This document shows positions 2,667 to 57,306 of a stretch of 64,000 nucleotides of DNA, piece by piece. The DNA is from Planctomycetota bacterium (GTDB taxonomy: Bacteria; Planctomycetota; UBA8108; SXIK01): the NCBI GenBank assembly GCA_965223265.1, contig OZ244999.1:5088001-5152000 (forward strand), written 5' to 3'. A model generated the notes under the pieces. It searched no databases. It was given only the letters and a program-made list of their open reading frames with translations, and was not told the DNA's origin. Positions within the stretch are counted from its first letter, which is position 1, and each line of letters opens with the position of its first letter. The translations under genes were made by a program, and so were the position numbers.

Positions 2667-5600
2667 TCAAGATCCTTTCCAACTATGCTCCCTGGACGCA
2701 TCTCTGTCAAGGCCACGATCGTCCACTTCCCGGCGTCGATGCTCCAGCCACGCGCGGAGACACTTCGCTGTGCGCGATGTGCGCCATTGATCCACGAGCT
2801 TCGCCGGCGGCCCTTCAAAGAGCAGCTCACCGCCCCCGTCGCCTCCCTCCGGCCCCAGGTCGAGGACCCAATCGGCACCCGCGATCAACTCGAGGTGGTG
2901 TTCGATCACAACAACCGCGTGTCCAGCCTCCGCCAAACGCCGAAGAATGCCCACGAGTCGCTCGACGTCAAGCATGTGGAGGCCAGTGGTCGGCTCATCG
3001 AGCAGATAGAGACACGCGCCGGACGCCGTCTTACTCAGCTCAACCGCCAGTTTGACGCGCTGCGCTTCACCGCCGGAGAGTGTCGTGCTTGCCTGCCCGA
3101 GTGCCAAGTAGCCGAGGCCGAGATCCTGAAGTGACTGCAGAATGCGTGAGACATCCGCGTATGCCTCGAAGAAGTCCAAAGCTTCGTCAACGGTCATCTC
3201 GAGAACGTCTGCGATCGACTTGCCGCGATACTTAACCTCGAGCGTTTCCGCATTGAAACGCCGGCCGCCGCAGACCTCACAGTCGACCGCGACGTCGGGG
3301 AGGAAATTCATCTCCATACGAATGCGTCCTTGACCGCCACACGTCTCGCAGCGTCCTCCAGCCAGGTTAAACGAGAACCTCCTTTTCTCGTAGCCAAGGG
3401 CCTTAGCCTGCGCCGTCGCTGCGAAGATCGTACGAACGCGATCCCACACCCCCACGTAAGTCGCCGGCGTCGAACGCGGTGTGCGCCCGATCGGGAGTTG
3501 ATCGACTTCTCGCGTCGCAGTCAGAAGCTCACCACCGCGCATCGAGGCACAGTTGACGGCGGGCGAGCGGCGCCCGTGGAGAGCCCGGCGGACGCTGGCG
3601 AGCAGCACTTCGCGAACGAGCGTCGATTTGCCGGCACCAGATACGCCCGAGACGACGGTGAGTGCTCCCAACGGGAAGCTCGCCGTCACGGACTTCAAAT
3701 TGTGCACTTGAGCGTCAACGATCTTCACGACTTCTGGCGTAGTTCTCGACAAGCCAAGGTTCGGCTCCACCGCGCGCTGCGAACGACTGCGCCAATAGGT
3801 CGCGGTTGCGGAGCGCTCGCTTTCGATCAACGACTCGAGCGGTCCCGCAGCGACCACTTCACCGCCGTGACGTCCCGGCCCTGGCCCCATGTCGATGATG
3901 TAGTCGGCTGTTTCGATCGTCGCGTCGTCGTGCTCGATCACCAAAACGCTATTGCCTCGGTCGCGCAGATCCTGGAGCGTGCTCAACAGTCGCTCGTTGT
4001 CACTGGCGTGAAGGCCGATCGTCGGTTCATCGAGTATGTAGCAGGCACCTCGAAGCTTTGACCCGAGTTGGGCGGCGAGCCGGATACGCTGCGCTTCACC
4101 GGTCGAAAGCGTACTGGCTTCACGTGATAGCGTCAGATACGGCAGCCCAACACGCTGGAGGAATTCGAGGCGGGAGACAATCTCCTCGATGATCGGACGC
4201 CCAACCTGCTCGTGCGTCCCGGAAAATCGGACGCGACGGCAGAAACGAATGAGATTCTCCACAGTCATGTGAGCCAGCTCCGCGATGCTGCGGTCACCGA
4301 CTCGCACACCAAGCCACTCGCTCTTGAGGCGTCCACCGCGACACGTCTCGCAAATGATGTCACGCCCCCAGCGCTCGTAGTACTCGTAGGCGTCGTCGGG
4401 ATCGAGTCGCTCAAGTCGCTCTGTAACGAGAGTTGCGAGGCCTTCGAAGACACCACCGCTGTCGCCCTCGAACAGCACGCGCACCGCGCTACGTGGCCAA
4501 CTCGCCAACGGCAGGTCGACGGTTCCACTTTTGATCTTCTTGCCGCGCTCGAGGCGCTGCAGGCATCCGACAATGCGCACTCGCTCCGATCGCGCTCGCG
4601 ACTTCGGAAACGGCGAGTCACTAAGAAACGCCAGTGGGCCGCGAGGGTCACTGAGCCGCGCGTCCCATACAGAGACGACACGTTCGGGGTCGATCTCAAG
4701 TTGTGCACCGTAGCCATCGCACTCGTCACACTGCCCGTGGCGCGAGAGGAAACTGAAGTGCCGCGGCTCTGGTGGCTCGAAACTGCACCCGCACTGCGGA
4801 CACGAACGCTCGAGATTGAAGACCGTCTCGAGACCGTCGTCGCCCAAGAACCGTATGACGCCGCTGCCAAAGTCGAGGGCACGCGCAACAGACTCTCGCA
4901 AGACGCGAGCGTCGACGTGTCCCGGCGCGAAGCGTTCGACGACGAAGTCGATGTCATGCGCGCGATGCCGTGACAACCTCAGCTCGGTCTGCTCGGGAAT
5001 AGCGACCCACTCCCCATCGATACGCGCATCAAGAACGCCGCGACGGCGCGCATCACTCAGCAGTTTCGAGTGAAATCCTTTCTTACCTCGCACGGCAGGA
5101 GAAAGGAGTCGGCCGCCGCCGGTAGCCAACGATCGCACGGCAGCGTCGATCTCTTCGCGCCGACGCGGGATGACTTCGACCTCGCAGTGAGGACAAAACT
5201 GCACCCCAACGCGGGAGTAGAGAAGGCGGAGGAACTGATAGATTTCGGTCACCGTACCGACGGTCGACTTCCTCCCCCCTACCGTCGTCCGCTGTTCGAT
5301 CGCCACGGTCGGTGGGATACCTTCGAGATGATCGATGTCAGGGCGATGAAGATCCTCGACGAACTGCCGTGCGTACGGCGACAAACAGTCGAGGAATCGC
5401 CGCTGGCCCTCAGCGAACACGATGTCGTAGAGAAGCGAAGATTTTCCAGAGCCACTGAGCCCCGTAACGACGACGAACTGGTTCAACGGGATATCGACGT
5501 TGAGGTTTTTGAGGTTGTTCTCTCGTGCCCCGAGAACGCGAATGCAAAGGTCGTCTGTGGTCGCGGGAGTGAGCGAAGAGGCTCCATTTTTCGGGCGTGG

Positions 5601-51244: not shown

Positions 51245-52253
51245 TCATTCACATGGTGAGAAACTCTCGCACTCAAACCGATCCACAACGACATCAGGAC
51301 CGCAATCTGGGAACGGAGTCGATATTATCGTGCCGTCGACAAAGAGGGCGTTAAGGAGAAACACCACATCCGCCAACTCAACACCATCGTCATCGTTTAT
51401 GTCTCTCGCCTCATCACAACTGGCAGACTCTCCACCGCGAAAAAGGGCATTGAGCAAAAAGATGGCATCACTCAGATTTACAGCGCCATCGGTGTTCGAG
51501 TCGCCTCTCACAAATGGCTGCCCCGGCCCCTCCCTAACGATCACCTCCATTGCAAACCCGTCGTCCAACGCTCCCGCTCTACCGGCGATCACATAAGACC
51601 CCTCACTGCTGTCGACTATGTCGAATCCCGCTCGTCCCACAACGGTGGCCTTTCCTCGGAATACGCCCTGTGGATTCGTCAGTATCAAACACGTATTCAT
51701 TGAGGTATCGTTCGATTGTCCCATCACTAAGAAACCCGACGTCAACTCTTGGACCGAGTATCCGATTTCACGTCCGCTTCCCGCCAACCTCTTCTCCCAC
51801 ATCAACCCCCCGACCTTGTCCAACCGCACAAGATAAACAGAGGAAATTCCTCTTCGATTACTATAACCAACCACAACAAAACCTCCGTCCCGAGCAGATT
51901 GAATATCTAACCCACCGTTGGACCCCATCCCGCCGAAAGTCCTCTGCCAAGAAACGTTTCCTTCGGAATCAGACTCAAAAACATAGACATCCGTCTGCTC
52001 CGCCCCAAACGAGGCACTCTTGCCAACCACAACGTGGCTTTGGCCGTCTTCCGTGACCGCCACATCATAACCGTAGTCATTCCTTTCACCTCCGACCTTT
52101 CTCTGCCACAAAGGCTCTCCTGCCGCGTTAGTTCTAATAAGCAAGACGTCGAAACCATTAATTGTTTCAACCCTCGTACTACCCGCTAAAACAAACCCGC
52201 CATCTGGCCGCTCCTCCACTACATAAGCCACGTTCTCCGCTTGCTCACCAAAC
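51245..52253 (-). pseudogene. 3' part of a secreted beta-propeller plus dockerin-like protein interrupted by the transposon
   Basis: W.r.fGG repeats and FVRGDSNTDGAVNLSDAIFLLNALF...C..A.DINDD module; joins in frame with 56319-56770 once the element is removed. Confidence 0.85.
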
Positions 52254-52387
52254 TGCTAAGTCCCACAGTATCTGGCGCGGAAATCCCAGATTAAATGGCA
52301 TGGTGCTGATTCGCGGGTGCGAGATGCGATTTGCGAGGCGAGAAGGCGCGGGTCGTCGTGTCCCGGACGGCACGACGACCCGGGGAA

Positions 52388-52705
52388 TCACGAAGGGCGA
52401 GGCGTGGCGCGAGCGTCACCGCGACGATCGCGGAGCTCGGCGAGGAACTCGACGGCGTCGACGAAATTCAGCCGCTTGACGATCATGACCAGGTCGATCG
52501 GGTTGAAGTTCGTCTCGCAGCGAAAGCAACGCGCGAGGTTGGTGGACGCCTTCGTCGCGGTGTTGAATTCGCGACACCGCGGACAGAGGAAGCGCACGTA
52601 GCCCTCGGAGATTTTCGCGGGGACGCCGAGCAGATCGAGGAGCCACGCGATCGGTATATCGTTTCTCAACGACCGCAGGAGCTTGCCGGAGAATCGTCCT
52701 GTCAT
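52388..52705 (-). CDS. Stand-alone primase-type (CHC2-like, C4) zinc-finger protein
   Basis: FLCPRC...ARCFRC..NFNPIDLVM....NFVDAVEFLA resembles the DnaG Zn-binding domain; ATGA coupled to the upstream ORF. Confidence 0.8.
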   Translation of the reverse strand: MTGRFSGKLLRSLRNDIPIAWLLDLLGVPAKISEGYVRFLCPRCREFNTATKASTNLARCFRCETNFNPIDLVMIVKRLNFVDAVEFLAELRDRRGDARATPRPS

Positions 52706-52995
52706 GCGACGCCACCTCCACCGCTCGGCGCCTTCAAATATCGGATTCGTTGCAGGCTCTCGAGATACTCTTCGAGGACGATCTGGAGCGCTCGCAGCTG
52801 AGCGCCCAAGGCGGCGAGATAGGCGTCTTGCTCGGTGTAGGAGGAGCGTTGCGTGTAGTCGAAGTCGAGATCGGGGTACGCGGCGTTCAGAGCGAACAGG
52901 GCGATCTCGAGGTTCGTCGCGAGGGTCATCAAAACGGCGAGCTCAGGATACTCGGCGAAGTCGTTGACTCGAGGCATCAGGGTCTTGTGGAACAT
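52702..52995 (-). CDS. Small helical hypothetical protein of the transposon
   Basis: 97 aa, GGAG SD, translationally coupled to the downstream Zn-finger gene. Confidence 0.7.
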   Translation of the reverse strand: MFHKTLMPRVNDFAEYPELAVLMTLATNLEIALFALNAAYPDLDFDYTQRSSYTEQDAYLAALGAQLRALQIVLEEYLESLQRIRYLKAPSGGGGVA

Positions 52996-53014
52996 GGCGC
53001 GTCAGTCTCCGTTC

Positions 53015-53806
53015 TCAGGGCAGATGGAACTCGGGGGCGGTGTCGTTGACGAGCGCCTCGGAGATCTTCTGGACGTTCTTGCTCGCGGCCTGAATGAGGC
53101 AGGCGGTGGCGATGTTGTTGATGCGCCGCGGCACGCCGCTTGAGTAGTCGTGGATGAGCGACTTCGCTTCAGGCTCGAAGACTTTCTGCGAGGCGCCGGC
53201 TGCGCGCATCTGAAAGTCGATGTACTCGACCGTCTGCTCCTTGCTGAGCGGCGGCACGTGGTAGCGCACGCTGAGCCGATGCGTGAGATCGGCGTGGCGC
53301 GCTCGGGTAAGCTCCTTTCTCAGGGTCTCTTGTCCGCTGAGGAGGATCTTCAATGGCGGGCCGTCCTCGAGTCCGGAGCTGACCAGAAGTCTCAGATCGG
53401 TGAGCGACTCCGAAGGAAGCAGGTGCGCTTCATCGATGACGAGGATTGTCGTGTGCTCGTTCGCCCCGACGCGATCCAGGATCTGGAGGAAGAGCCGCTC
53501 CTTGCCACGGCGGGGCTGCTCGCCGAGGCTGGAAACCAGGAGCTTCAGAATGCCGTTTGCCCCGACGTAGGTCAGCGAGAGATAGATCGGGTCGTAGAGG
53601 TTGCGGCTCAGCGAGCGCACGAAGAGCTTCACCAGAGACGACTTCCCCACCCCGGTGAGTCCGGTCACCAGGCCGATCGAGCCCGACTTGGCGAGGTACT
53701 CCAGTCGAGCGAGTCCCTGGGTGATGCGCTCGTCGGAAAGAATCTGCTCGACGGGCGCGCGCTCGAGAAAGGGCTGCGTCGTCATCTTGAAATGGGTGGT
53801 GAACAT
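53015..53806 (-). CDS. ExeA-like AAA+ ATPase (transposition helper, MuB/TnsC/IstB analogue)
   Basis: MFTTHFKMTTQPF, Walker A GLTGVGKS, Walker B LVIDEAH and GVPRRINN; TGATG overlap with the transposase. Confidence 0.88.
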   Translation of the reverse strand: MFTTHFKMTTQPFLERAPVEQILSDERITQGLARLEYLAKSGSIGLVTGLTGVGKSSLVKLFVRSLSRNLYDPIYLSLTYVGANGILKLLVSSLGEQPRRGKERLFLQILDRVGANEHTTILVIDEAHLLPSESLTDLRLLVSSGLEDGPPLKILLSGQETLRKELTRARHADLTHRLSVRYHVPPLSKEQTVEYIDFQMRAAGASQKVFEPEAKSLIHDYSSGVPRRINNIATACLIQAASKNVQKISEALVNDTAPEFHLP

Positions 53807-55368
53807 CAGTCCTCCTTTCTGCCTGCGAGTCGTTGAAGCTCGTAGGCGATGTAGGGAATGGATTTCTCCGGAGCCTTCTCGAAGGCCCTCAGCAAGAGGA
53901 CTTCGGTGAGGCTGGGAGTACGGTTGTAGAACTTCTTGAGTTCCTCGAGCTCCTCGGCGGTGAAGCTCGAGAGGGCGCCCTTGCGCCCCATGAGCCGGCC
54001 GAGAAGGCATGCGAAGTCGGTGAAGGGCCACTGGCGAGAGGCGATGACACGACGGTAGTCGATCCCCTGGGCGCGCTTCTTGAGCTCCTCGTCGTGCTCA
54101 CGGCGAAGAAGCTCCAGATAGTTGTGCTTCGCTTTGGCGGGAGGGGCGGGAGCACCGGCGTCCTCGCCCTCTTCGCGCTCGTGAAGGACGCCCTTTCCGA
54201 GGTACTCTTCGTTGCTGGAGTAGATGAGAACCGTGTCGGGCGCGGAGAAGGGATCGTAGCGGACTTCGACCTTGTCACCGCGCAGACTCTTGTCGACGCG
54301 ATAGAAGCGGCGATCGAGCTGGACGTCGGAGAAGTCCGGGTGAACGCGCCGCGTCTCGCGGCACATGAAGAACTCGGTGACGCGCTGAATGTCGACGTGT
54401 CGGATAGGCCGTTTGAGGCCGGCCTCGGCTCGTGCCTCGGGTGTTTCGCCGGTCTCGGTGTTGACCTGGCGGTGGTAGGCCACGGTCTTCCAGGAATCGA
54501 AGCTTCCGTTGAGCGAGTCGAGAGTGAGGATCTCGCCGGCTCTGACCTCGGCCTCGAACTGGCCCTGTATCGTCTCGATGAGTCGTTCGACGAGACCACC
54601 CGGTGGCGGATCGCCCTTGCCGCGATGGATGAGCCGGGTGACAACGGCAAGGCATGCCGCCTTGAGCGCTTTGGAGATATAGACCTTCGCCTGATCGACA
54701 TAGAGCTCGTCCGAAGCACCGTGCTTGGCCCACGCCCGCAGCAAGCAGTCGATCAAGACCTCGAGATTTTGCCGAAGGTAGTAGCGCCCCTCGACGAGCG
54801 AGCGGCTGTAGCAGTCGATGAGAACACAGAGGAAGGTGGGGACGACTTCGCCGTCGTGCAGCACGTAGGGTCCATCGGCGAAGTCGCCGACCCAGAGGGC
54901 ATGGGTGGAGTCACGAGTCCAGCGTTTCCGGACTTTCCTCCTCTCGACACCGAGCTTCAGCCGCGTCGCGCCGGCGATCTTGAGGTAGCGGAAGAGGGTC
55001 GAACGCGGAATGGTCTTTCCGTGCTGAGCCTGGAGGAACTTGTTGATGGCGAAGTGGGAGCGCAGTGGCTGATCACGCTTCAGCTCGACGGCTTTCTCGA
55101 CGAGCTCTTTGCCGTGGGCACGCGGTTTCCCGCGATCGCTTCGCGGCCTGCGGGCAAGACCCTCGAAGCCCTCCTCGCGATAGATGCGAAGCTTCCGCCT
55201 CAGGGTCGAAAGAGCCGGCTTGCGTCGCGATCCGTCGGGAAAGATGCGCTCTTCTTTGGCGAGCTCGCGGAGAAATCGCGCGGCTTCCTCCTCCGGCACC
55301 TCGCCGATGACGACGGGCTGGAGAAGAGCCGCCCAGAAGATAGCCCAATCGAGATCTTTCGCTTTCAT
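53806..55368 (-). CDS. DDE transposase/integrase with HTH domains and Mu-transposase-like C-terminal domain
   Basis: WVGDFADG (D), LYVDQAKVY (D), GLVERLIETI (E), RSDRG and VEVRYDPF; SD GAGGTG before ATG 55368. Confidence 0.9.
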   Translation of the reverse strand: MKAKDLDWAIFWAALLQPVVIGEVPEEEAARFLRELAKEERIFPDGSRRKPALSTLRRKLRIYREEGFEGLARRPRSDRGKPRAHGKELVEKAVELKRDQPLRSHFAINKFLQAQHGKTIPRSTLFRYLKIAGATRLKLGVERRKVRKRWTRDSTHALWVGDFADGPYVLHDGEVVPTFLCVLIDCYSRSLVEGRYYLRQNLEVLIDCLLRAWAKHGASDELYVDQAKVYISKALKAACLAVVTRLIHRGKGDPPPGGLVERLIETIQGQFEAEVRAGEILTLDSLNGSFDSWKTVAYHRQVNTETGETPEARAEAGLKRPIRHVDIQRVTEFFMCRETRRVHPDFSDVQLDRRFYRVDKSLRGDKVEVRYDPFSAPDTVLIYSSNEEYLGKGVLHEREEGEDAGAPAPPAKAKHNYLELLRREHDEELKKRAQGIDYRRVIASRQWPFTDFACLLGRLMGRKGALSSFTAEELEELKKFYNRTPSLTEVLLLRAFEKAPEKSIPYIAYELQRLAGRKED

Positions 55369-55408
55369 GATCACACCTCGCATGGGGCGAGCGAGGCGTG
55401 ATTCTCGC

Positions 55409-56077
55409 TCACGCCCAGGCTGCGGAGGTTGCCAAGTCGGGGAAGATCGATCGGCCGAAGAGGGAACGGAACACCTGGTCGATCGAGAGAGCTCGAAGTG
55501 CCGCGACGAGAGTGTCCCGCCGTGATTCGCTTCGGTACTTGGCTGGACGGACGGCGAAGACCTTGCGGAAGATGTCGGACCTCGCCGAGCGCTCTCGGAT
55601 GAGGCGGAGAGCCTCCAGGAGCGTGGCGTTGAGAGAGCGAAAGAACGAAAGCCAACGATGAAGTGTTGAGTGCGCGAGGCTGCGCTCGTCGATCGCTCCC
55701 CTGTCGTCACCCTCGTGGAAGACGGGCATGTGTTCGACCTTGACGGCTTCGCGATACGAAAGCTCGTCGATCTGGAGGTAGCGCCGAGCGTGATCGAAAA
55801 CGCAGTCGCGAACGTAGCGTTTCCCCGGCAGCGCGAAGGGCGGGTAGAGCGTGAAGGAGCGCTTACACAGAGGACACTTCCAGCGACTCAGAAGCGACAG
55901 GACAGGTTCGACCAGACGCCTGACGATAACGAGGAACACGCGCTCTCGGTGACCGCGGTAGCGGAACCGATCTGGCTCCCCGCTGCAATTCGGGCAGCGG
56001 TTACAGGTCGGCTGGATCTCACGGCGGCGAACAGCTTCGCCATAGCTCTGTATCGCGTTGACCAAATGGGGTAGCAT
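55409..56077 (-). CDS. Zn-ribbon plus HTH protein (DUF6431-like), first gene of the transposon
   Basis: CPNC...WKCPLCKRSFTLYPPFALPGKRY and STLHRW. Confidence 0.7.
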   Translation of the reverse strand: MLPHLVNAIQSYGEAVRRREIQPTCNRCPNCSGEPDRFRYRGHRERVFLVIVRRLVEPVLSLLSRWKCPLCKRSFTLYPPFALPGKRYVRDCVFDHARRYLQIDELSYREAVKVEHMPVFHEGDDRGAIDERSLAHSTLHRWLSFFRSLNATLLEALRLIRERSARSDIFRKVFAVRPAKYRSESRRDTLVAALRALSIDQVFRSLFGRSIFPDLATSAAWA

Positions 56078-56318
56078 CGCTCTCTCCGTACGGGGACTTG
56101 CGGAGAGAAGTGCACCAACACCGGTCTCTCCGCTCCCCTCTTTACTCGAGGTGAGGCGAGGAGTCGAGCGAAGGTCCAGGGCGCAGCGTCGAACGGGGGG
56201 CGCGGGGTAGGCGGGGTATGATCGGACGGTCGGTTCGGCGGGGTATGCCGGGGCGTTTCCGGGTCAGTGAATCTGAGACTCGTCGCTGCTCACGAGCCAG
56301 AGTTTGTGGGACTCAGCA

Positions 56319-56770
56319 CCAAACCTCTTCTCCCACATTACCTCCCCGACTTCGTCCACGCGAAGAAGGTAAGCTTGTGACCCAGTAGTGCCGCTCCCGT
56401 CCAACCCGAAAGGTGCACTTCCCCCTGATGCCCCCGAAACCACGAACCCGCCCTGATTGGAGGCGACCTGCCGAACGCTCAACGCTTCGTCATATCTCTC
56501 CCCGCCGTAGGAACGCTCCCACATCACTCGTCCGAACTCATCCAATCTCGCCAGATACGCATCTGCTCCTAAAGGGTGGTCGATTCGAACGATTGAACCG
56601 GCAATGATTGAACCTGAGTGCGCCCGATCCACCGATAGCGCTCGGTCATGATTGTCGCCGCCAAAAAACGTCTCCCAGCCCACCTGCGTCTCGAATCCAA
56701 AAATGCCGCGATCAGCCGGCGAAAGGACAGCCCAAGCTACCAGACCAACAATCCGTGTGAACACACTCAT
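56319..56770 (-). pseudogene. 5' part (signal peptide and first propeller blades) of the transposon-interrupted gene
   Basis: MSVFTRIVGLVAWAVLSPA..., WETFFGG, WERSYGG and WEKRFG, then reads into the element end. Confidence 0.85.
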
Positions 56771-56883
56771 GACTTCATTGACCAAAAGTGCACCCGATAT
56801 CCTCCTCTGCCCCCGCGGGTCACGTGGCGTCCAAGAGGCACCTGGACGTGCCCCGAGATCCGACGCCGCCGAACACGACTCTT

Positions 56884-57306
56884 TCACTGCGCGTCGGCTC
56901 GAGCTTCGAGTTCGAGCGCGTAGTTTCCTGGCTCGAAGGCCCGCGGGAGCCTCAAGCGCTCACCATTTTCGCGCAGTGTCACTCCCGAGAGCCCGCGAGT
57001 GTCGAATTGAATCGCCTGCTGCACGTCGAGAGTCAACTTCATTTGCAGCTTGCTCTCAACCCACGTGGCAACACCCTGAATCGACGCAATGACCTGACCG
57101 TCGAACGACTTCGCCTGAAACTGCACTGTGGTCTTGCCGTCGACGTCGCTGAGAGTGATGTTCGGCTGTCCGTTGCCCTCGTAGTCGATGGAGACTTTTC
57201 CGGGCCCCTGAGCGGAAATGACAGCTCTCGGAGCCGCCGAGACGAAACGGTAACATCCCGCGGGGAGTGCGATCGCTAGGAGAAGAACGAATGCCTGGGG
57301 TTTCAT
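56884..57306 (-). CDS. Putative lipoprotein (beta-rich)
   Basis: MKPQAFVLLLAIALPAG-C lipobox; AAAGG SD. Confidence 0.7.
   Translation of the reverse strand: MKPQAFVLLLAIALPAGCYRFVSAAPRAVISAQGPGKVSIDYEGNGQPNITLSDVDGKTTVQFQAKSFDGQVIASIQGVATWVESKLQMKLTLDVQQAIQFDTRGLSGVTLRENGERLRLPRAFEPGNYALELEARADAQ

Follow-up and report, generated by a model that had tools for sequence, protein, structure and literature searches.

A multi-copy transposon family pairing a DDE transposase and an AAA+ ATPase with a predicted primase-type zinc-binding protein

Transposons in which a DDE transposase is assisted by an AAA+ ATPase (Mu, the insertion sequence (IS) family IS21, Tn7 and the CRISPR-associated transposons, CASTs) are a source of targetable DNA-insertion tools, and the control of the transposase by the ATPase and by extra factors is an active structural question. 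IS481 elements carry a single gene and are about 1-1.3 kb long, Mu makes a target duplication of 5 bp, and transposons of the Tn552/Tn5053 type have a resolvase and a res site with which cointegrates are resolved. For IS481 a 6-bp target consensus, NCTAGN, is reported (PMC3053399), and a figure legend in PMC10293859 states that no target selector or third protein has been reported for IS21. The element described here lies in a stretch of 64,000 nucleotides, called the window below, from a Planctomycetota bacterium (assembly GCA_965223265.1, contig OZ244999.1, positions 5,088,001 to 5,152,000 of the forward strand). It encodes five proteins, named A to E in their order of transcription, and is very probably a currently active, autonomous, IS-like transposon of a widespread four-gene family, A-B-C-E, which carries here an additional, lineage-specific gene D.

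Being compact, apparently active, cargo-free and very widespread, and coding for two conserved zinc proteins without a described role, the element could reveal a new mode of communication of transposons with DNA or with replication. Its ten genomic copies and a cultured host of a relative make it directly testable. The family also matters for annotation: it breaks assemblies into contigs of about 4 kb, on which it is labelled merely 'DDE-type integrase'.

Structure of the element and its copies in the genome

The initial annotation had placed a complete transposon at 52248..56324 of the window, with TG...CA ends, terminal inverted repeats identical at 19 of 23 positions and a 6-bp target-site duplication, CCAAAC. 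All these features were confirmed in the sequence and the element is real, but the span includes both copies of the duplication. The element proper runs from 52254 to 56318 (4065 bp), with TG at its start and CA at its end. The match between its terminal 23 bases, read as inverted repeats, was reached by none of 200,000 random pairs of 23-mers of the same composition. The features are listed below in window positions.

51245..56887, - strand: host gene split by the insertion, in pieces 56264-56887 and 51245-52231
52248..52253, no strand: target-site duplication, copy 1 (CCAAAC), the same 6 bp being found on either side of the element
52254..52276, no strand: terminal inverted repeat at the E-gene (3') end, starting with TG on the + strand, 19/23 against the other end
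52281..52295, no strand: inner end-repeat AAATCCCAGATTAAA, in which the end motif recurs about 28 bp inside the terminus
52350..52381, - strand: 11-bp perfect inverted repeat GGGTCGTCGTG...CACGACGACCC, directly past the E stop codon
52388..52705, - strand: gene E, 105-aa stand-alone protein with a predicted primase-type zinc-binding domain (Zn_ribbon_DnaG, predicted fold)
52702..52995, - strand: gene D, 97-aa accessory open reading frame, apparently lineage-specific, no family match
53015..53806, - strand: gene C, 263-aa AAA+ ATPase of the ExeA/AAA_22 type (AAA_22, TIGR03015)
53806..55368, - strand: gene B, 520-aa DDE transposase (Mu-transpos_C, rve, HTH_32, IS481 model)
55409..56077, - strand: gene A, 222-aa DUF6431 protein (DUF6431, four-Cys zinc ribbon)
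56267..56281, no strand: inner end-repeat at the A-gene (5') end, read from the sequence
56296..56318, no strand: terminal inverted repeat at the A-gene (5') end, ending with CA on the + strand
56319..56324, no strand: target-site duplication, copy 2 (CCAAAC), matching copy 1

The element was found in 10 full-length copies in the single-contig genome of 9.18 Mb. Eight of these are identical and have the sequence of the window copy; the other two share one synonymous A/G single-nucleotide polymorphism, at Gly217 of B. A perfect 6-bp direct repeat flanks each copy, and no two of the ten repeats are alike. When the element and one copy of the duplication were removed in silico, at least 5 of the 10 insertions were seen to interrupt open frames of 411-1260 aa. 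The window copy splits a host frame of 547 aa that is restored by this removal; the C-terminal (downstream) piece of the host gene has a weak match to Dockerin_1 (21.7 bits, under the cut-off). In the contigs of four public runs, which cover two samples from a single study and may be the data behind this assembly, the element formed a separate unitig of 4065 bp, 8-17 times as deep as its flanks. These contigs, in which rare forms cannot be seen, contained no empty-site form and no circle junction.

Some contigs of the runs leave the element at about 52408, 53060, 53217, 53699, 54324, 54528, 54788, 55104 and 55846 and pass into unrelated sequence, and some of these departure points recur across runs. 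Such contigs could represent additional partial copies, copies that were rearranged, or insertions within the element itself. One degenerate copy belonging to this family, made up of an A-like open frame, split B fragments and a C fragment, lies elsewhere in the genome (locus L213, G000:C1:2463001-2481000), where another DDE gene and a large serine recombinase are found among mobile-element debris.

The five genes lie head to tail on the - strand, co-oriented and partly overlapping as the initial annotation had stated: B and C overlap by 1 nt and D and E by an ATGA, with a gap of 19 nt between C and D. A fusion of A and B by frameshifting, as in IS3, was considered and rejected, the A stop being 40 nt from the B start. 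No cargo gene is present between the ends, which enclose only these five small genes, and neither TniQ, TnsA nor a resolvase/recombinase appeared among the Pfam and NCBIfam matches (E <= 0.1) of the five proteins. The earlier statement that TniQ and passenger genes are missing was thus borne out in these scans. A promoter scan gave 0 promoter-like sites and a terminator scan gave 1 terminator-like site, fewer than in shuffles; the scan made no call at the inverted repeat past E, which is without a T-run.

The inner end-repeat AAATCCCAGATTAAA resembles GAGTCTCAGATTCAC at the opposite end of the element, and a GTC(C/T)CA motif about 30 bp inside the terminus is also present in three loci of the family (L016, L047 and L062). 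These inner repeats are putative transposase binding sites. The end motif TGCTAAGTCCCACA is kept in family members of other phyla.

Protein B passes the Pfam cut-off for Mu-transpos_C (PF09299; 32.8 bits, cut-off 21.7) and falls just under it for rve (31.2 bits) and HTH_32 (27.8 bits). Residues 48-304 match the NCBIfam IS481 model with an E-value of 7.6e-30, at 104.4 bits against a cut-off of 224, and B also matches the PHROG 'transposase' family phrog_310 (E 9.2e-29). The layout is an N-terminal helix-turn-helix (HTH), an IS481-like core and a C-terminal Mu-type barrel followed by about 130 aa of conserved tail. The DDE triad (D162, D225 and E261) is invariant in an alignment of 14 sequences, and the closest solved relative by sequence is ShCAST TnsB (E 1.7e-10). 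Source annotations name B just 'transposase InsO family protein' or 'DDE-type integrase'.

Protein C matches AAA_22 (64.4 bits), the ExeA-like model TIGR03015 (E 6.5e-35) and the PHROG 'DNA transposition protein' family phrog_296 (E 2.6e-25). Its Walker motifs, GVGKS (A, residue 52) and IDEAH (B, residue 124), are both invariant in the alignment. A sequence search of the PDB with C gave nothing below E 0.04, and a tblastn search of a phage collection gave one weak match, the 'putative transposase B' of phiSHP3 (28% identity, E 3e-4). Taken together with the ends, these assignments support the view of a transposon that is complete and autonomous, its transposase being Mu/IS481-like and its helper an AAA+ protein.

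A widespread family with an A-B-C-E core

Relatives of B are abundant: of 7999 scored candidates, 1114 matched at E <= 0.001. Those ranked in the top 120 are 483-546 aa long, have 54-76% identity to B and lie mostly on contigs of 2-5 kb, as expected because repeats break assemblies. A scan of one genome per species gave 221 relatives, and the best 80 of these loci, from 54 assemblies (counted by accession prefix), were examined by searching all open frames of each locus with the window's five proteins using phmmer. The loci are labelled Planctomycetota, Desulfobacterota, Chloroflexota, Cloacimonadaceae and others, with some archaeal metagenome-assembled genomes (MAGs), although taxon labels of 4-kb MAG contigs call for caution. 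Cases on long contigs are from Planctomycetia, several Desulfobacterota, including the isolate Desulfoferrobacter suflitae DRH4, in which the family is multi-copy, and one Cloacimonadaceae MAG.

The gene set A+B+C+E was found in 70 of the 80 loci, A+B+C in 6, A+B in 2, B+C+E in 1 and all five genes in 1. With contig ends allowed for, A is present in 74 of the 74 loci that have room for it, and E in 71 of the 74 that extend at least 300 bp past C. Of the three loci without E, one is a truncated copy (L053); in the other two, the near-identical elements L027 and L035, the position of E holds an unrelated 116-aa open frame without a Pfam match (3583-3933 in L027). These two elements are on Desulfobacteraceae / Pseudomonadota MAG contigs. 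In most loci E directly follows C, so there is no room for D. The core of the family is A-B-C-E, in that order, and spans about 3.7 kb.

The initial annotation had regarded the element as a five-gene unit and A, D and E as a module that might be undescribed. The co-occurrence data uphold A and E, but D is present in one of the 80 loci (L013), where it follows E in the order A-B-C-E-D, and the family is therefore a four-gene rather than a five-gene one. Absence from most relatives was found for D (79 of 80 loci) and not for E. No Pfam, NCBIfam or PHROG match was obtained for D, and an Atlas search gave a best score of 0.79 and no lead. Two other homologues, at 86% and 58% identity, were found in a collection of 5.8 billion clusters; a hidden Markov model built from two D sequences had no further matches. 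D thus appears from its distribution to be a lineage-specific add-on, dispensable for the family.

The elements of three other genomes that carry several copies measure 3693, 3716 and 4321 bp. Their ends start with the motif of the window element, T-G/C-CTAAGTCCCACA, and have a second GTC(C/T)CA-type repeat about 30 bp further in, and most show duplications of 6 bp. A complete genome of 4.4 Mb from the same phylum (G135) has 11 identical matches to the E gene, with AAA_22 and Mu-transpos_C genes upstream; as another closed genome with a burst of this family, it would serve insertion-site statistics well.

More distant kin, at about 30% transposase identity, were found on plasmids of Streptomyces, Rhodococcus, Mycobacterium, Thermobacillus and others. 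They have the arrangement DUF6431 protein - DDE transposase (rve and Mu-transpos_C) - (small open frame) - AAA_22 ATPase, without E. Because these kin carry A-B-C without E, the three genes appear to be an older trio to which E was added later in the clade found here. In the Streptomyces plasmid (L093) and in Thermobacillus composti plasmid pTHECO01 (L094) the small frame is of 92 aa; the DUF6431-like frame of the latter (L094, 3265-3864) is unannotated in its record.

Target choice was analysed at 31 insertion sites. An exact 6-bp duplication was found at 23 of these, from four genomes, a 7-bp one at three and a 5-bp one at one; four sites had none. Of the 23 exact duplications, 15 carry a T at the third position and 16 an A at the fourth, which is A or T in 22; the binomial P values for the T and the A are 5e-4 and 1e-4, respectively, before correction for 136 tests. 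Insertion is thus IS-like: scattered, often intragenic, mostly with a 6-bp duplication and with a preference for a central TA, as judged from a modest number of sites. The collection of further insertion sites proposed in the initial annotation gave a preference like that reported for IS481 itself (PMC3053399). Selection of safe sites in the manner of Tn7 was not seen, since the insertions are scattered and often inside long open frames.

Full-length copies without matching duplications were seen in two other genomes (L016, L017 and L067, and L073 with 5 of 6 positions matching), which suggests recombination between copies or intramolecular events. By eye, the flanks of these copies could not be paired as simple reciprocal exchanges.

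Proteins E and A and their possible roles

Protein E scores 22.0 bits with Pfam Zn_ribbon_DnaG (PF01807), just under the cut-off of 24.9. Its AF2 model (pLDDT 87.8) has as its top Foldseek row the zinc-binding domain (ZBD) of Bacillus stearothermophilus DnaG (1d0q_A; E 2.8e-4, probability 1.00, TM 0.64, rmsd 2.8, 91 columns) and also matches the N-terminus of Aquifex primase (2au3). About 95 residues are conserved, and 25 columns are invariant among 25 sequences, including C41, C44, C60 and C63. E is therefore predicted to have a primase-type zinc-binding fold with these four putative zinc ligands, in agreement with its initial description as DnaG-like.

Modules like E are not confined to this family. 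A profile of E found 1350 representatives at E <= 0.001, 133 of them at E <= 1e-30, and the best 150 are of 87-245 aa. Among longer proteins, clusters P0148-P0150 are IS3-family transposases with a C-terminal E-like domain (54-56% identity to E), and two of them, P0148 and P0150, score above the NCBIfam IS3 cut-off. Metagenome contig L133 carries such an IS3 element, with orfA followed by a 466-aa orfB that ends in the E-like domain, and it alone among 80 related IS3 loci has the fusion. The profile also reaches frames of about 600 aa in four genomes (E 1e-9 to 1e-10), which are presumed to be DnaG.

Three further E-like genes, 45-57% identical to E, lie outside the ten copies in the present genome. 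In L213 one directly follows an IstB gene (IS21 helper model, 207.1 bits against a cut-off of 200) that is preceded by a Mu-transpos_C_2 fragment, and another follows an AAA_25 ATPase gene, itself after three consecutive tyrosine-recombinase genes. In L214 (G000:C1:804001-814000) the E-like frame (5070-5354 of the locus, - strand) is directly past a truncated IstB gene. Its product is the sole member of the E family tested that passes the Zn_ribbon_DnaG cut-off (27.6 against 24.9 bits).

E-like genes were present in 15 of 401 sampled genomes of the phylum, the present one included. The upstream context was examined for 16 E-like loci outside this genome: an AAA_22 ATPase gene precedes four and an IstB gene one (L219, G380), seven have no recognisable ATPase (several are partial matches), three could not be assessed owing to a contig end, and one has a 576-aa frame. 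The last (L221, G066:C183, 1-1728 of the locus) is open at the contig start, has no Pfam match at E <= 1e-4 and ends in a partial E-like match (profile positions 29-90); it may be another E-like fusion.

Protein A scores 21.1 bits with Pfam DUF6431 (cut-off 26.6) and its nearest Atlas clusters are DUF6431 proteins (score 0.99); a Streptomyces relative at the same gene position scores 38 bits with this model. C28, C31, C68 and C71 are invariant in 27 sequences, and a helix with the motif 'ST.HRW' is conserved. The AF2 model of A (pLDDT 89.6; 57.7-89.6 over five models) consists of a beta zinc ribbon and a helical C-terminal half. Its best VIA rows are partial, e.g. the NrdR zinc ribbon with Z 3.8 over 45 residues.

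A mechanism can be proposed from these assignments. The transposase B would bind the bipartite ends and nick at the terminal CA. The ATPase C, judging by family resemblance, would be its ATP-dependent partner, capturing or presenting target DNA and activating strand transfer as do MuB, IstB and TnsC. Strand transfer would be staggered by 6 bp, as the duplications show, and take place preferably across a central TA step, a statistical preference from modest numbers. The pathway is probably replicative or of the copy-out-paste-in type, as in IS481, IS3 and IS21, because copies accumulate while donors persist, there is no TnsA or resolvase and the core is IS481/IS3-like. A, with its zinc ribbon and helical, HTH-like half, may bind DNA as an accessory, most likely to recognise the ends or to regulate, and D would be dispensable for the family. 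E would be a conserved zinc module of primase-ZBD fold within the transposase/ATPase machinery, not a site-specific selector. E-like modules stand beside three kinds of ATPase, are fused to IS3 transposases whose elements lack an ATPase and are predicted to have the primase-ZBD fold, which argues for a module acting on DNA inside the transposition machinery rather than for a site selector. The best guess is that E binds single-stranded or branched DNA at target capture or at a step after strand transfer.

Several points weigh against this account. The sublineage of L027 and L035 swaps E for another frame and the distant Streptomyces and Thermobacillus plasmid kin are without it, so E is not universally required for the transposase/ATPase pair. 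B falls below the cut-offs of both IS481 (104 against 224 bits) and IS21 (22 against 160 bits), which makes the inferred pathway weak. C has no significant sequence match to MuB, TnsC or IstB (E 0.26-0.42 in the PDB search; 13.3 bits with the IstB model), and A has no recognisable solved fold, with no Foldseek match at E <= 0.001 and no VIA match at Z >= 5. The target preference comes from 23 sites in four genomes, and the roles suggested for A, C and E are drawn solely from family resemblance. Finally, the comparison covered the NCBI IS-family models and full-text literature rather than ISfinder and TnCentral, so that the family is no more than apparently unnamed.

Four other readings were weighed. 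According to the first, E serves the AAA+ ATPase as adaptor or target selector and, as a minimal counterpart of TniQ in function, would load it onto, or position it on, particular DNA. It is consistent with the position of E-like genes immediately downstream of ATPase genes: of the ExeA/AAA_22 type in 71 of 74 family loci and in four further Planctomycetota loci, of IstB in three loci of two genomes and of AAA_25 in one locus. TniQ is likewise a small zinc-finger protein (PMC9798831 and PMC10293859). However, the IS3 fusions place the E-like domain on the transposase, in elements without an ATPase gene. No TniQ is found in the 50 best Foldseek rows for E, which are primases, though TniQ structures are in the PDB, and the scattered, frequently intragenic insertions have merely a short TA-centred preference. 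We regard the adaptor reading as tentative and rather unlikely.

In the second, which extends an idea of the initial annotation, E would direct transposition towards replication forks or single-stranded DNA, or bring host priming to a branched transposition intermediate. The predicted retention in E of the whole 91-residue primase ZBD fold is in its favour. The primase ZBD binds template single-stranded DNA and can act in trans on the polymerase domain, and the families with E-like modules (IS481-like, IS21 and IS3) are thought to use replicative or copy-out pathways; both points fit such a role. Strict orientation bias is known for the TnsE pathway of Tn7 and for IS200/IS605, and an insertion bias with replication direction had been raised in the initial annotation. 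From cumulative GC skew, origin and terminus lie near 7.95 Mb and 3.52 Mb, respectively, and the genes of the element are co-oriented with replication in 7 of the 10 copies (P 0.17). The copies in this genome suffice by themselves to reject a 95%-strict bias (P 0.012). Local GC skew from 2 x 20 kb, which agrees with the global assignment at 283 of 288 random positions here, gave 5/10 and 2/10 co-oriented copies in two other genomes (G001 and G002), or 2/5 and 1/5 at sites with |z| >= 2.5; many sites in these genomes are below that value and G-rich leading strands were assumed. The pooled count is 10/20. A strict replication-orientation bias is thus excluded, which speaks against this reading, and a weak bias, orientation-neutral fork targeting or a part in priming after insertion remains compatible with the data. 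A role of E at forks or in priming is accordingly improbable, in our judgement.

The third is that A, E or both are regulators outside the transpososome that restrain transposition, as repressors or as inhibitors like IS3 OrfA. IS elements often encode small DNA-binding regulators. Gene A comes first, beside the end presumed to bear the promoter, its product has a zinc ribbon and an HTH-like half, and a Streptomyces homologue matches HTH_23 (E 8.7e-6). A pure repressor is hard to square with an E-like domain fused to the C-terminus of a transposase, and the high conservation of E across phyla, with its invariant columns, suggests a structural partner. Regulation alone is, on this evidence, an improbable account of the two proteins.

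The fourth is that the family is already catalogued, in ISfinder, TnCentral or other papers, with known accessory frames, and that the element is an ordinary member of a known IS group. Curators may have met a family that is abundant and is multi-copy in the cultured D. suflitae DRH4. Against this, the NCBI IS-family models, which follow ISfinder families, make no claim to it, IS481 being the best, and the names given in the sources are generic. Full-text searches of the literature, which did not extend to supplements, ISfinder or TnCentral, found no account of this architecture or of any transposon with a primase-type zinc finger, and DUF6431 came up in them solely in two unrelated papers. 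The family is apparently unnamed, and we consider its prior cataloguing improbable as well.

A further proposal is that E represents a new class of transposition accessory, a stand-alone primase ZBD repeatedly recruited by A-B-C-E, IS21-like and, as a fusion, IS3 elements, and that it links the transpososome with DNA in single-stranded or branched form and with host priming. This is very doubtful at present; if true, copy-out or replicative elements would take over lagging-strand-type primer synthesis at their own intermediates. A prophage relic or a Tn7-like island was rejected in view of the ten copies with their own duplications and of the lack of phage, TnsA or TniQ genes.

Comparison with known systems

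The preferred reading of the element as an active A-B-C-E transposon with an added D can be set against the described systems one at a time. IS481 supplies the best-scoring IS-family model for the core of B, and the element shares with it the TG...CA ends and a 6-bp duplication with a central TA, comparable to the NCTAGN reported for IS481 (PMC3053399). It differs in that B is below the family cut-off, in its size (4065 bp and five open frames here, about 3.7 kb and four genes in the relatives) and in having a Mu-type barrel and long tail on B, an AAA+ partner and two zinc proteins.

With IS21 it shares a DDE transposase with a dedicated AAA+ ATPase in a small, cargo-free, multi-copy element with bipartite ends, and E-like genes are also found directly after bona fide IstB genes. 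However, B scores 21.9 bits against a cut-off of 160 with the IstA-type model and C 13.3 against 200 with the IstB model, and C is of the ExeA/AAA_22 type, not the DnaC/IstB type.

The likeness to Mu and to B3/D3112-like phages lies in the Mu-transpos_C domain of B, which passes its cut-off, and in the phrog_310 and phrog_296 matches. Unlike Mu, the element has no phage genes between its ends, and its duplication is of 6 bp in all 10 copies. Tn552/Tn5053-type transposons differ from it in their resolvase, no resolvase or recombinase domain being found in the five proteins here.

Tn7-like elements and the type V-K CASTs, which have TnsB and TnsC plus TniQ, a zinc-finger protein, and no TnsA, resemble it in the combination of a transposase, an AAA+ ATPase and a small zinc-finger protein, and it is the TnsB of a type V-K system, ShCAST, that is closest to B among solved structures. 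In contrast to them, the element has no TniQ, TnsA, CRISPR parts or cargo in the Pfam and NCBIfam scans, and E has a predicted primase-ZBD fold and not that of TniQ. There is also no attachment site, the insertions being at 10 distinct sites of which at least 5 are inside open frames.

The closest structural counterpart of E is the DnaG ZBD (Zn_ribbon_DnaG / zf-CHC2), on which its model superposes over 91 columns of 1d0q_A. Unlike that domain, E stands alone, without RNA-polymerase or helicase-binding domains, and is encoded by a transposon, and its putative zinc ligands are four Cys residues in place of Cys-His-Cys-Cys.

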